Below are positions 281 to 14,730 of a stretch of DNA of 17,821 nucleotides, one piece after another (positions within the stretch are counted from its first letter, which is position 1; each line of letters opens with the position of its first letter). The notes beneath the pieces were generated by a model. It was not told where the DNA came from, ran no database searches, and worked only from the letters and a program-made list of their open reading frames with translations. The translations under genes were made by a program, and so were the position numbers. Origin of the DNA: a virus; the IMG/VR virus record IMGVR_UViG_3300001213_000018; one strand, 5' to 3'.

Positions 281-330
281 AGTATACCGGGGTGGAGGTC
301 GTTTTGGACACTATTTTGGGAAATTTTTTC
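281..330 (-). promoter_or_regulatory. Conserved promoter copy P1: -10 TATACT at 281-286, -35 TGTCCA at 305-310, 18-nt spacer, A/T tract at 313-330.
   Basis: Minus-strand reading: GAAAAAATTTCCCAAAATAGTGTCCAAAACGACCTCCACCCCGGTATACTAG, then a 17-nt leader with SD GGGAGAG, then ATG. Same architecture as the other four copies. Confidence 0.6.
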
Positions 331-458
331 TACTTTGGTCTGGTTTTCCCACAGATTATGCACCTTTCAAAGTAAACGGCGTGAAAACCAACCCCCGGAA
401 TGTATGGACTATGGTAAAGTCACAAGTCCAGTGGTGAAAAGGCCACCACCAGCGATGG

Positions 459-848
459 TTAACCATCTCCGCCACCACCGCCACCCCCATCTCCACCATC
501 CCCGGAGTCCCCACTGGCATCCCCCGCGTCAGTACCTACATCGCCCCCGGTGCCGGGGTCGGGGGACTCCGTGGCTTCCAGTTCATTAGCACCGTTCTGC
601 TCTTCCTCGACGTTCATCTCTTCTTCCCGCTCTTCAACAGGACGGGCTTTGGCGTACGTCCAAGGGGTGTAGGAGTCATTCTTGACCCACTCGTCCCCTG
701 TACCCATGTTCCAATACCAGTCGTCGCCCATCTTGAAGGCTTTCTCGCCGTCTGACATGCGAATGACTTTGGCCCTACCGTGGTGGTGAACCTTGCATCC
801 GACGAAGAGGAGAAGTCCGAATAGCAGAACCGCCTTAGTGAGTTTCAT
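459..848 (-). CDS. Putative secreted lipoprotein. N-terminus MKLTKAVLLFGLLLFVGC has a lipobox-like FVGC. His-rich start of the mature region and a Gly/Asp-rich low-complexity C-terminal tail.
   Basis: Internal ATG at 846-848 preceded by SD AAGAGG, chosen over the ORF-track start at 959. Hydrophobic signal region ending in Cys. Stop TAA at 459-461. Confidence 0.5.
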   Translation of the reverse strand: MKLTKAVLLFGLLLFVGCKVHHHGRAKVIRMSDGEKAFKMGDDWYWNMGTGDEWVKNDSYTPWTYAKARPVEEREEEMNVEEEQNGANELEATESPDPGTGGDVGTDAGDASGDSGDGGDGGGGGGGDG

Positions 849-1395
849 GTGTAGCCTCTTGGTCGGAAGAATCGTGCTGATGATGAATGGCGGCGTTGGT
901 CTTGCAGAAAGCAAGCAAACCAAAAATGAATGTGAGGTAGATGATGAGTTGAGCAGCAAGGTGCGACCAGTTCAATGCAGCGTCAGATTTATCCAAGTGC
1001 AGGAACACCTGAATCAAATGCACGGAGGCAACGCCGATGAGCGAACCGGCCATCTTTTCTTTCAGAATCCCCGAGGATATATGCGTGAGGCATCGAGGAC
1101 GTTTCTTCTTCGAAGCACCAGTGTCAACGAACACATAGTAGCTCCCAACCGCGATGAGCCAAACAAAATTGGCAATCATCATGATGTCCACAAGCTGAAG
1201 AACAATGACCGTGTGCTCTGTCAAACTCTCTTCCAGAATCTGACCAAACTGCACCCGGTAGAAGTCCACGCCGATGAGAAGAATTTGGTAGAGAAGAGCG
1301 ATGGACAAAGGCACCAGCAGATAGCGCGAGTAGAGAATGACATCCTCTACTCGCGACACAACCCAACGATGAGTACGACAGCGGCTACTTATCAT
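835..1395 (-). CDS. Integral membrane protein, about 4 predicted TM helices, 186 aa.
   Basis: ATG at 1393-1395 with SD GGGAAGAG upstream. It overlaps the stop of the preceding gene by 11 nt and the next gene by 14 nt. Four hydrophobic 19-25 aa segments. The ORF-track N-terminal extension to 1545 would overlap the upstream gene, so the shorter start is preferred. Confidence 0.45.
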   Translation of the reverse strand: MISSRCRTHRWVVSRVEDVILYSRYLLVPLSIALLYQILLIGVDFYRVQFGQILEESLTEHTVIVLQLVDIMMIANFVWLIAVGSYYVFVDTGASKKKRPRCLTHISSGILKEKMAGSLIGVASVHLIQVFLHLDKSDAALNWSHLAAQLIIYLTFIFGLLAFCKTNAAIHHQHDSSDQEATHETH

Positions 1396-1687
1396 GCTTC
1401 TCTTCCCACGCCTGTTTGAGTTGTTCGATGAATCCACCAATAACGTACCAGTGAGTCTTTTCCTTGAACGCCTGAGCAAACTTCCAGAACTCATCGCTTC
1501 CGGCTGGATTACGGTCGTCCCAGTGCTGGTTGAGAACTCGCACAAGACGCTTCACGCCCTGCTCTGCAACCTTGTGAGGAACATCGTCGTTGTCCACCCA
1601 CAACCGGAAGCCGTCGGGACCGTTGACTTCAATCCGCTTATCAATCCGCGTGTACGAGGCAATCGTGAATAGTTTAATTTTCGGCAT
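1385..1687 (-). CDS. Hypothetical protein, 100 aa (MPKIKLFTIASYTRIDKRIEVNGPDGF...).
   Basis: ATG at 1685-1687 with SD GGAGTGGAGG upstream. 14-nt overlap with the upstream gene (ATGCCGAAAATTAA). Confidence 0.5.
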   Translation of the reverse strand: MPKIKLFTIASYTRIDKRIEVNGPDGFRLWVDNDDVPHKVAEQGVKRLVRVLNQHWDDRNPAGSDEFWKFAQAFKEKTHWYVIGGFIEQLKQAWEEKHDK

Positions 1688-2174
1688 CGTCAGCAACCTC
1701 CACTCCATCCCATTTGAATCCAGAGCACAGGCTGTGGATGAAGAGGCTTTTATTGGCCTCGTACCACGCATCCCACTCCGGTGTACCTGCAATTATACCC
1801 TCAGGGAAGGGCGGGTTGGACTCCCTACGATACTCTATCCCCGCATCTTCCTCAGTCTGGTACCCACAATACTTGCAACCGACAGGTGCCATCTCCTCGT
1901 ATGTATCAAAATGCCGGTAGTACGGGTGACCACAGAGACACAGCCGGTTGTCGCCGAACTTTGGGTCATATCCCTTTGGAGCGTTCAGAATAATTTCTGC
2001 TGGCATCCATCCGACGACCTGAGAGAACAAATCTAAAGAGTCCTCCAGCCCCTTCGTGTAGTGCTCGATGTAAGTAATGAAAGGACGACTGGCAGCGCAC
2101 GTTATGCACACCAGAACAGCCGCTCCGGGCTCCGGGGGTTTGGTAAAGGGCGTCCATTCAATTCTTTCATACAT
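1674..2174 (-). CDS. Cys-rich hypothetical protein, 166 aa (CITC...CLCGH...CKYC), possibly zinc-binding.
   Basis: ATG at 2172-2174 with SD GAAAGGAAAAC upstream. Three paired-Cys motifs. Confidence 0.55.
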   Translation of the reverse strand: MYERIEWTPFTKPPEPGAAVLVCITCAASRPFITYIEHYTKGLEDSLDLFSQVVGWMPAEIILNAPKGYDPKFGDNRLCLCGHPYYRHFDTYEEMAPVGCKYCGYQTEEDAGIEYRRESNPPFPEGIIAGTPEWDAWYEANKSLFIHSLCSGFKWDGVEVADDAEN

Positions 2175-2187
2175 CTTGTTTTCCTTT

Positions 2188-13257: not shown

Positions 13258-13521
13258 TTATTCCTCCGGGGGGAGGGACTCGAATTCAGACCTGATGTAC
13301 GCTACAAACCGTTTGTGCAAGGATACTACAACATCAGTACCCGGTGGGATTGACTCCTGTGTAAATCTCAACTTCTCCCCGTTAATTGGGACGACACCCT
13401 CCGGGGTAACTACCGAGTACAGGTACCGTCCGTGAAGAGCGGGTGCGAGTGCAAGGGTGAGCCAGCGTTGAATGTACTTGTGGTCAGGTGTGTGTAGTGG
13501 ATATGGGGTTCGCGTGGTCAA
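13258..13521 (-). CDS. Hypothetical protein, 87 aa, apparent TTG start.
   Basis: ORF from the track. There is no in-frame ATG near the 5' end. TTG at 13519-13521 with GAGGA 9 nt upstream. Weak. Confidence 0.3.
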   Translation of the reverse strand: MTTRTPYPLHTPDHKYIQRWLTLALAPALHGRYLYSVVTPEGVVPINGEKLRFTQESIPPGTDVVVSLHKRFVAYIRSEFESLPPEE

Positions 13522-13577
13522 GAGAAGAAATCCTCAGCAAAAGAAGGTCAGAACACAACTAGGGTATCACACCCCGG

Positions 13578-13958
13578 CTATTTGAATCTGGTCGCCTCGC
13601 GGTGAGCTTCGGCACGTTTCCGGAAAATCCCGTTCTGCGCCAGCTTAAGTATTTGTTTATCAACCCTGAATCCCTTTTCGTGGGCAGTGAGAAAAAATTT
13701 CTCGTAGAACAAATTCGACCACTCAGCGTCCCTCCCGTTGGTCGGCCACTCGTATCCCTTGCCGAGAATGTCGGTCACAAGGAAGTGAAGCATGTAGTCA
13801 CGGGTCATGGTGTCTGTGCAATCGTATTTCAGCACATCGTTCCGCGTGACTGAATCTTTACGAGCATATTTAGCAATCTGCTCATAGGTCAGAGTGATGC
13901 CACAGTCCTTGAAAAACTCCCGCATCTTTGGAAACGTCTTGCGAATCTTGGTCTTCAT
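13578..13958 (-). CDS. Hypothetical protein, 126 aa.
   Basis: ATG at 13956-13958 with GGAG upstream. ATGA overlap with the upstream gene. Confidence 0.5.
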   Translation of the reverse strand: MKTKIRKTFPKMREFFKDCGITLTYEQIAKYARKDSVTRNDVLKYDCTDTMTRDYMLHFLVTDILGKGYEWPTNGRDAEWSNLFYEKFFLTAHEKGFRVDKQILKLAQNGIFRKRAEAHREATRFK

Positions 13959-14167
13959 TTTCCGGCTCCATCAATTGCAAGTTTGAGTCGGGTTAGGTCA
14001 AGGATGCTGTGTCCCCGGACGGTCATTTCCATGACGAATTCGGCGGCGTTCAACCGAATCCCTTCCCACATTTGTGCTTCGGTGATGTTCTGTCCCTGAT
14101 GCAGTCCAAGTGTAGCCATTACACACTCAGAGAGTTCCATCGCCGACCCTTCATACCAGACAATCAT
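13955..14167 (-). CDS. Small hypothetical protein, 70 aa (MIVWYEGSAMELSECVMATLG...).
   Basis: ATG at 14165-14167 with SD GGAGGG at 4-5-nt spacing. ATGA overlap with the upstream gene. Preferred over the ORF-track start at 14203. Confidence 0.45.
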   Translation of the reverse strand: MIVWYEGSAMELSECVMATLGLHQGQNITEAQMWEGIRLNAAEFVMEMTVRGHSILDLTRLKLAIDGAGK

Positions 14168-14673
14168 TTGCCCTCCAACTTGACCCAAAGCAGATGCGGC
14201 CAAGGTGCCAGACGTTCGAGTTGTGCATAGCAGGTCGCGGTCTTGGCAGCTTGCTCTCGTGCATCGTACATGGCCTTTAGCTCAGGCCACTTGGCGAACT
14301 GGTCTTTGGTTGCTTTCTTCACACGAGCCGGGGCTCCCTTGTCCGTTTCATGCCAGCGATAGCGGAACTTGATTGTCACAGGGGTGGCATCGTTGATTTT
14401 CTTGGCAGCGGCGTAGACGCCGGTCTCGCCCCGGTAAGGGCCGACAGCCATCAACTCGTAGCGATGCCCGTCAATCTTGGACATGCGGGTAGGGCGGGAA
14501 CCGTCTGCGGTCTTCATACAGCCATGATTCTTGCCACCACAAGAGCAGCGGCAGATTTCCTCACGAGCGTGCCAACAGGCTTCCCCGCAAGTAGCTTCAG
14601 TCAGGAAGGCGATAATGGGGCTCATCCCGGCTGCGATGTTTTTCTCGATAGGATTAAGCAGCTTGGTATCCAT
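14164..14673 (-). CDS. Cys/His-rich hypothetical protein, 169 aa (CGEACWH...CRCSCGGKNHGC), translated from a leaderless transcript.
   Basis: ATG at 14671-14673 lies 6 nt after the -10 hexamer of P4. No SD is possible at that distance. Confidence 0.55.
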   Translation of the reverse strand: MDTKLLNPIEKNIAAGMSPIIAFLTEATCGEACWHAREEICRCSCGGKNHGCMKTADGSRPTRMSKIDGHRYELMAVGPYRGETGVYAAAKKINDATPVTIKFRYRWHETDKGAPARVKKATKDQFAKWPELKAMYDAREQAAKTATCYAQLERLAPWPHLLWVKLEGK

Positions 14674-14679
14674 ACATAC

Positions 14680-14730
14680 AGTATACCGGGATGTACACCT
14701 TTTTGGCTACTTTTTGGGGGAATTTTTTGT
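14680..14730 (-). promoter_or_regulatory. Conserved promoter copy P4: -10 TATACT at 14680-14685, -35 TAGCCA at 14704-14709, 18-nt spacer, A/T tract at 14711-14730.
   Basis: Minus-strand reading: ACAAAAAATTCCCCCAAAAAGTAGCCAAAAAGGTGTACATCCCGGTATACTGTATGTATG. The upstream gene's TAG stop is embedded in the -35 element. Confidence 0.6.

Follow-up and report, generated by a model that had tools for sequence, protein, structure and literature searches.

The middle promoters of phage T4 carry the MotA box, (a/t)(a/t)(a/t)TGCTTtA, centred at -30, and leaderless phage mRNAs are exemplified by the lambda PRM-cI transcript and by Thermus phage phiYS40. The early promoters of T4 are very highly conserved multi-element promoters of the "uber" type, which combine UP, -35, TGn, and -10 elements (Hinton 2010, PMC2988021). 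In bacterial leaderless genes, the promoter hexamer TANNNT begins 12 bp upstream of the start codon (Zheng et al. 2011, PMC3160421), and about 13% of the genes of Acidobacteria are predicted to be leaderless (PMC3160421). Here we describe a family of promoter sites in a stretch of 17,821 nucleotides from an uncultivated virus (IMG/VR record IMGVR_UViG_3300001213_000018; this whole stretch is called the window below). A reading of the sequence of the window (the original prediction) had assigned five sites to one promoter class; this assignment stood, and the leaderless geometry of some of the sites had been missed. The sites very probably represent one promoter family that is shared by a clade of huge peat and soil phages.

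Five copies of one motif in the window

The heptamer GTATACT occurs five times in the window (0.45 expected), a number that none of 200 shuffles reached, and all five occurrences (281-287, 3048-3054, 8811-8817, 12753-12759, and 14680-14686) are on the minus strand. The longer pattern CCAAAA-N14-GTATACT fits all five copies, with 0 expected by chance; thus, the spacer from the CCA-ending hexamer to TATACT is 18 nt in every copy, exactly as the original prediction had stated. A position weight matrix was built from positions -55 to -7 of copies on other contigs only, with the window and its duplicate contig excluded. The matrix scored the five sites at 28.9-60.6 bits and found no site above 8 bits on either strand in the rest of the window; the best score in shuffled sequence was -1.9 bits. 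Thus, the window contains five copies and no hidden sixth, and the exact motif counts and the independent matrix agree on one shared minus-strand architecture. The further claim that the 50-mers are near-identical did not survive, as pairwise identity is only 22-39 of 50 positions (44-78%), with conserved blocks and variable spacers.

The TATACT hexamer has the form of a -10 element in all five copies (TAnnnT, with A at -11 and T at -7). Exactly 18 bp upstream lies TAGCCA, TGTCCA, or TGACCA, which matches TTGACA at 3-4 of the 6 positions and is conserved in this noncanonical form. The -35 formula given previously, T(A/G)(G/T)CCA, describes the other copies and fails for copy 2, which has TGACCA. 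Three of the window copies passed a generic 9-of-12 promoter scan. The TGn of an extended -10 is not found: G at -14 is conserved, and the base at -15 is G in copy 2 and C in the other four window copies. The CCGG that had been described as conserved is robust in its GG half (-14/-13), and its CC half (-16/-15) is more variable among copies retrieved independently of the search pattern. Further upstream, A-tracts at -55 to -50 and -42 to -38, separated by TTT(C)C, are conserved in the family and resemble an UP element in sequence, and the UP-like A-tract of the original prediction was borne out by these A/T tracts at about -40 to -60. All five sites lie directly 5' of minus-strand start codons, the placement that had been reported for them.

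The distance to the start codon divides the copies into two groups. Copies 2, 3, and 5 have a gap of 6 nt between TATACT and the ATG, the A of which is exactly 7 nt past the last T of the hexamer, and the -10 begins 12 nt upstream of the start codon, as in leaderless genes. Given the usual distance from the -10 to the transcription start, leaderless mRNAs are predicted for these three copies; the first base would be the A of the ATG, and translation would proceed without a Shine-Dalgarno sequence. For copies 1 and 4, the ATG follows 11-14 nt after the predicted first base, which falls within GGAGAG or just in front of it; thus, the RNA would begin at its own Shine-Dalgarno sequence. From these start positions, we infer that some mRNAs of the promoter class are leaderless.

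Each copy would open a transcription unit on the minus strand. Copy 1 (281-331; 56.7 bits) has TATACT at 281-286, GG at 287-288, TGTCCA at 305-310, and A/T tracts at 311-331. Its transcript is predicted to start with the G at 274 and to have an 11-nt leader from GGGAGAG to the ATG at 263-261; the predicted unit includes only the next gene, which leaves the window. Copy 2 (3048-3098), which has GTGTATACT, is the weakest (28.9 bits); its -10 occupies 3048-3053 and its TGACCA 3072-3077. The site falls within the 3' end of the upstream open reading frame (ORF) 3038-3268, its ATG (3041-3039) begins exactly 7 nt after the -10, and its predicted unit has eight genes. Copy 3 (8811-8861; 49.4 bits) has the -10 at 8811-8816, TAGCCA at 8835-8840, and A/T tracts upstream; the ATG of Ku at 8804 coincides with the predicted +1, and the predicted unit consists of Ku (ORF 7836-8804, minus strand, identified by a domain match) and four genes. 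Copy 4 (12753-12803; 50.4 bits) has the -10 at 12753-12758 and TAGCCA at 12777-12782, and its upstream part overlaps the end of ORF 12780-13256. Its mRNA is predicted to start AGGAGAG with the A at 12746 as +1, before the ATG at 12732-12730, and would carry rIIA (ORF 10231-12732) and rIIB (ORF 8961-10238), both on the minus strand and both assigned by PHROGs, up to a terminator. Copy 5 (14680-14730) has the highest score (60.6 bits), with the -10 at 14680-14685 and TAGCCA at 14704-14709; the predicted +1 is the ATG at 14673 of a 169-aa Cys-rich protein, and the predicted unit has five small genes. The gene content named originally, namely Ku, rIIA, rIIB, and a gene for a major-vault-protein (MVP)-like protein, was confirmed by domain and PHROGs matches.

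Conservation in uncultivated huge phages

Loci of relatives were retrieved through homologues of the Ku protein (47-94% identity), independently of the motif. All the Ku orthologues are preceded by the same series of elements: a terminator hairpin with a T-run, A/T tracts, T(A/G)GC(C/T)A, a spacer of 18 unrelated nt, GGTATACT, 6 unrelated nt, and ATG. Across five lineages of Ku orthologues, TATACT and ATG are always 6 nt apart. In the window, the equivalent intrinsic terminator, a hairpin with a T-run (8882-8906, minus strand; 9 pairs, of which 8 are GC; fold energy of -21.9 kcal/mol), lies directly upstream of copy 3 and separates rIIB from it. At the rIIA orthologues of four loci, TATACT-N4-GCAGGAGA(G) is kept and is followed by 5-11 nt and ATG. 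The orthologous arrangement of copy 1 is present in loci L066 and L067, the internal leaderless-type arrangement of copy 2 recurs in L147 and L148, and the orthologue of the copy-5 gene in L152 retains TATACT-N6-ATG. The sequence and the spacing of the blocks are kept at orthologues, and the spacer sequence varies. In four loci ascertained by homology (81 kb in total, 43-55% GC), the matrix found 15 sites, all 15 on the gene strand before start codons and none on the opposite strand. Together with the scan of the window, this census, taken on relatives rather than on the source genome, upholds the confinement of the motif to upstream positions.

Pattern scans found copies with the full architecture in IMG/VR contigs of 13-463 kb and in dozens of metagenome contigs from JGI and ENA. 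The exact Ku protein of the window is also encoded, in the same gene order, on a JGI metagenome contig of 413,469 bp (3300075153). Many of the source samples are, as we presume from recognised sample-series names, peat, bog, or fen. The consensus of 57 non-redundant copies is aAAAAATTTCC, N2, AAAAAC, TAGCCAAAAC, N10, cCCGGTATACT. As the search patterns had fixed CCAAAA, CCGG, and GTATACT in these 57 copies, only the other positions of the consensus are unbiased. In the same copies, information content is low in the spacer and downstream of the motif. C at -8 is almost invariant across the family, the phages of which span 43-56% GC.

The start-site geometry also recurs in the family. An ATG lies exactly at +1 in 18 of 53 non-redundant members, whereas about 0.85 would be expected, and in at least 16 further members a Shine-Dalgarno sequence lies in a short leader. 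A pyrimidine (T/C) occupies position -1 in 48 of the 57 copies, and a purine (A/G) occupies +1 in 48 of the 57. The first genes downstream of the sites across the family include rIIA, Ku, NAD-dependent DNA ligase, a DinG/XPD-like helicase, a PARP-like ADP-ribosyltransferase, a nucleotidyltransferase of the CCA-adding/poly(A)-polymerase type, an HD-domain protein, and many small Cys-rich proteins; no virion structural gene was among the downstream genes inspected. Judged by gene identity, this cargo probably fits a pre-replicative class.

Outside these metagenomic contigs, no GenBank phage was matched when the whole window was searched by megablast. Two huge phages in GenBank, LR756500 and LR756501 (24-32% GC), are without the motif and share only an MVP-like protein with the window. 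A 17-base version of the motif gave 33 matches in 185,579 bacterial and archaeal reference genomes, all of them chance-like and none with the full architecture; thus, the motif is not a host or prophage sequence within that collection. Our search of the literature yielded nothing relevant on the motif or on a vault protein in huge phages.

Some individual members differ from the rest. In locus L019, CCCGGTATACT and the leader are all that remains of the orthologous promoter (minus strand, offset 1864 of the reverse-complemented locus). In comparison with L074, the upstream half has been replaced by unrelated GC-rich sequence, which makes the site a natural deletion variant of the upstream box that could inform on the function of this box. 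In L147 (about 8410-8466) and L148 (about 3785-3841), the architecture, with TACAAT and GCCGAAAC, occurs about 130 nt ahead of rIIB, within the 3'-terminal part of rIIA. This position recalls the internal rIIB promoters of T4, and the window has no equivalent site. Family copies with non-coding-looking downstream sequence were considered as promoters of non-coding RNAs or tRNAs, and this was rejected, as no tRNAs were found. In L068, L070, L113, and L132, a shared ORF starts with ATG or GTG after a 5-nt gap; L101, L146, L096, and L117 are not among these. A plus-strand hairpin in the promoter spacer was dismissed because it needs G-T pairs and follows from the CC...GG ends of the motif.

Likely hosts and the reading of the promoter

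The 512-aa protein encoded in the window has a single match among 50,697 GenBank phage records, which is in jumbo phage Tunturi_5 (41% identity), and 5 of the 25 window proteins match this phage. The host of Tunturi_5 (PP885688) is Tunturiibacter psychrotolerans, a member of Acidobacteriota from tundra soil. The hosts of the clade are probably Acidobacteriota. In the 309-kb genome of Tunturi_5, TAGCCAAAA does not occur, GGTATTAG occurs 38 times (about 9 expected), and GTAGGTTGA occurs 26 times (about 2.4 expected). The frequent motifs, CCTCC-N4-5-GGTATTAG and TTCATCTTT-N~18-TTGTAGGTTGA, sit before genes; the 26 copies are those of the core of the latter motif, which precedes many small genes and serves gp284, a 57%-identical orthologue of the copy-5 gene. 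Like the window family, these motifs are lineage-specific, highly repeated, and bipartite, and stand before genes of a jumbo phage. Their sequences differ from those of the window family, and none is described in the relevant paper on these Acidobacteriota phages, which contains no promoter analysis (PMC11924767). Only 13 GTATAC sites are present in Tunturi_5, versus about 75 expected on uniform composition; this scarcity, together with the absence of canonical promoters, suggests avoidance of a restriction site and of host-type promoters.

Tunturi_3 (97.6 kb), a phage of the same host genus, carries no gene annotated as a sigma factor or polymerase. Its genome contains 25 matches to the canonical promoter pattern. 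The clearest of its promoters read (C)TTGACA-N17-18-(TGn)TAtAgT, with TGn in 10 of 13, and gp51 and gp139 start exactly 7 nt after the -10 hexamer. Judged by sequence, the window motif resembles host-type Acidobacteriota transcription in its -10 part and in its leaderless geometry. The upstream half of the motif is not a canonical -35.

We lean towards the reading that the sites are one promoter class read by a sigma70-family holoenzyme, which yields leaderless mRNAs or mRNAs that start at a Shine-Dalgarno sequence and serves non-structural operons. Whether the unaided host primary-sigma holoenzyme reads the family as an early class, as the original prediction had proposed, is, in our estimation, evenly balanced. 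GGTATACT would provide the -10 hexamer (T-12, A-11, T-7), in which the G at -14 gives a resemblance to an extended -10, and T(A/G)NCCA would occupy the place of the -35, 18 bp upstream. The role of an UP element would fall to two or three phased A-tracts between -57 and -27, and transcription would start 7 nt after the hexamer. The class would drive non-structural, probably pre-replicative operons, such as those of rIIA-rIIB, Ku, and the small Cys-rich proteins. That the sites form a single promoter class is supported by gene co-orientation, the canonical -10, the pyrimidine/purine step at -1/+1, the terminator upstream of Ku, and the conservation at orthologues. In L151, a gene for a protein with sigma70 region 4 is located in the Ku operon, downstream of a promoter of this class; this fits a class that is read before phage sigma-like factors exist. 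The host-read early version is also favoured by the canonical -10, by the genes served, by the precedent of the over-specified early promoters of T4 (PMC2988021), and by a survey of about 100 kb of sequence from the clade, in which no second candidate for an early class appeared.

Several observations weigh against the reading that we prefer. The -35-like box (TAGCCAAAAC), with only 3-4 of 6 matches to TTGACA, is conserved in its own noncanonical form; position -15 is C and not the T of TGn; and generic sigma70 recognition would not demand the specificity of a near-invariant C at -8. Every start site is placed by inference from sequence. Tunturi_5 is without GTATACT and without TTGAC[AT]-N16-18-TAnnnT (0 found, about 5.6 expected), and its orthologue of the copy-5 gene is served by a different bipartite motif. 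The canonical promoters of the Tunturi_3 type, CTTGACA-N17-18-TGnTAtAgT, occur neither in the window nor in its close relatives. As the -35-like box is unlike the TTGACA promoters of Tunturi_3, a phage-encoded factor is a serious rival to recognition by the host enzyme. In its widest form, which we offer tentatively as possible rather than probable, both the clade and, separately, Tunturi_5 would avoid TTGACA promoters and would begin transcription from lineage-specific bipartite promoters. A phage sigma-like factor or activator, possibly delivered with the virion, would read the TAGCCAAAAC box and the phased A-tracts and redirect the host core polymerase, and the mRNAs would be mostly leaderless or near-leaderless.

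A promoter of the middle type seems rather doubtful to us. Here, the host sigma factor would read the -10 in GGTATACT while a phage activator binds AAAAACTAGCCAAAAC, centred near -32, and takes over from the -35 contact, in the manner of MotA/AsiA at T4 middle promoters, and the promoter would fire only after phage protein synthesis. Such an activator would account for a box of about 10-16 bp that is strongly conserved and unlike TTGACA, and for the absence here of the canonical TTGACA promoters seen in Tunturi_3 from the likely host phylum. The genes served also agree, as rIIA and rIIB of T4 have MotA-dependent middle promoters (PMC2988021), and the ligase, helicase, and nucleotidyltransferase fit a middle class as well as an early one. 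However, the AAA that follows the hexamer is TTT in the Ku orthologue of L149; thus, the conserved core is the hexamer at the -35 position. No domain of the MotA, AsiA, or activator type was found in the window proteins scanned, and the box itself is TAGCCAAAAC rather than a MotA box. The lack of another candidate early class and the sigma-like gene downstream of this class in L151 both speak against the middle type as well.

Reading by a phage-encoded sigma factor or a phage RNA polymerase, perhaps delivered with the virion, in a programme independent of host-type promoters, is unlikely in our view. The very high information content across phages of 43-56% GC, the sigma-like proteins of relatives (in L151, and gp3 and gp211 of Tunturi_5), the lack of canonical host promoters in both Tunturi_5 and the clade, and the use of different bipartite motifs for an orthologous gene in the two lineages are all in keeping with it. 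However, the -10 is a textbook primary-sigma hexamer with a start 7 nt downstream, and the GG-TATA(g/c)T core and the leaderless geometry are also found in the host-type promoters of Tunturi_3. Moreover, the sigma-like gene of L151 is itself behind a promoter of this class, and no gene for an RNA polymerase subunit is present in any locus read.

Start-associated repeats are present in some phages, such as the cluster K mycobacteriophages. That the sites are a repeat of this or another non-promoter kind (a mobile-element end, a recombination or packaging signal, or a translational start-associated sequence) is most improbable, since, although they are dispersed, about 50 bp long, and always adjoin start codons, only functional blocks at promoter-like spacing are conserved while the spacers vary freely, strand and position are strict, TAnnnT, the -1/+1 pyrimidine/purine step, and the upstream terminators fit a promoter, and there are no flanking repeats, transposase genes, or Rfam matches.

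Neighbouring features and known systems

The matrix scan of the window found no copy at the MVP gene, the 512-aa gene, or the plus-strand gene, in agreement with the original prediction. Its suggestion of a different class for the MVP and 512-aa genes is supported by other conserved upstream elements in relatives. The 512-aa orthologues of L147, L149, L151, and L152 have CATAGGCAA...CCTCC-N5-7-(A/G)GTATTA(A)G about 60-100 nt upstream, in a region that lies just beyond the end of the window, and CCTCC-N4-5-GGTATTAG also precedes gp160, the 512-aa orthologue of Tunturi_5. The CCTCC element is likely a second promoter class common to both lineages. In the region upstream of the MVP gene (about 5835-5850, minus strand), GTAGTGTGAATTTCAA resembles TTCATCTTT-N~18-TTGTAGGTTGA of Tunturi_5 and may represent a third promoter class.

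The MVP-like protein (818 aa; 3338-5794, minus strand) has shoulder and repeat domains of the major vault protein. Its homologues (39-47% identity) are found in syntenic relatives and, among GenBank phages, only in the uncultured huge phages LR756500, LR756501, and LR756503. The gene is followed by a terminator-like hairpin (3287-3308, minus strand), GGGAGTGC...GCACTCCC, then ATTTCTTT, with -23.5 kcal/mol for the folded 37-nt stretch, in which flanking pairs extend the hairpin. An identical 13-mer, CTTTGAAAGGAAC, occurs on the minus strand at 5801-5813 and 17769-17781, 6 nt ahead of the ATG of the MVP gene and of a GTG at 17762, respectively. From the aligned N-termini of orthologues, this GTG, and not the TTG at 17768, is likely where the "512-aa" gene truly begins. 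The 13-mer, which is poorly conserved in relatives, is probably a ribosome-binding region common to both genes.

The lone plus-strand gene, at 15172-16215, had been called an ATPase. Its product has 40% identity to the N-terminal ATPase half of gp1, the terminase large subunit of Tunturi_5. No nuclease half adjoins it, and it is absent from this position in the syntenic loci L147, L149, L151, and L152; it may be a split or relocated terminase. Inside rIIA, a perfect 39-bp tandem duplication (10789-10868; 2.1 copies, 100% identical) repeats the peptide GRTFVEFVNEVRD and could be a recent duplication or an assembly artefact. In L151, two proteins with helix-turn-helix domains of the sigma70 region-4 or LuxR type flank Ku (9293-9820 and 11276-11938), and none is found there in the window; among viral contigs, the sigma-like protein of L151 had only two matches, both weak. 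No Rfam RNA family and no tRNA were found in the window.

The family provides a first, testable promoter consensus, with a predicted map of transcription units, for a clade of uncultivated phages of 100-460 kb that often turn up in metagenomes of peat and soil. With the motif, pre-replicative gene sets can be located, start-codon calls corrected (several starts being predicted leaderless ones), and further contigs of the clade identified. How jumbo phages of this host group recruit RNA polymerase becomes a concrete question once the motif is set against the canonical promoters of Tunturi_3.

Among known systems, the family is like the T4 early promoters in its many copies, in a long conserved consensus that goes beyond the minimum for the host, in its UP-like tracts at -40 to -60, and in its canonical -10. 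It also serves genes of pre-replicative or host-takeover character, with timing judged by the cargo. It differs from the T4 early promoters in having the box T(A/G)NCCA at 18 bp, CGG in place of TGn, and TATACT with a near-invariant C at -8. Furthermore, about one-third of the copies are placed for leaderless mRNAs, and the host is probably not a proteobacterium. With the T4 middle promoters, which serve rIIA and rIIB, the family shares a canonical -10 combined with a conserved noncanonical box at the -35 site, but this box is unrelated to the MotA box, is still at -35 spacing, and keeps T1, C5, and A6 of TTGACA.

As in bacterial leaderless promoters, the first T of the hexamer lies 12 nt before the A of the ATG in copies 2, 3, and 5 and in 18 of the 53 family members, and the same is true of gp51 and gp139 of Tunturi_3. 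Unlike those promoters, the same class also serves leaders that start at a Shine-Dalgarno sequence and has strongly conserved upstream elements. Conserved multi-element phage promoters and leaderless phage mRNAs were thus already known; new are the consensus, its wide occurrence in a clade of uncultivated huge phages, and the predicted production, from one promoter class, of both leaderless transcripts and transcripts with a Shine-Dalgarno sequence at the 5' end.

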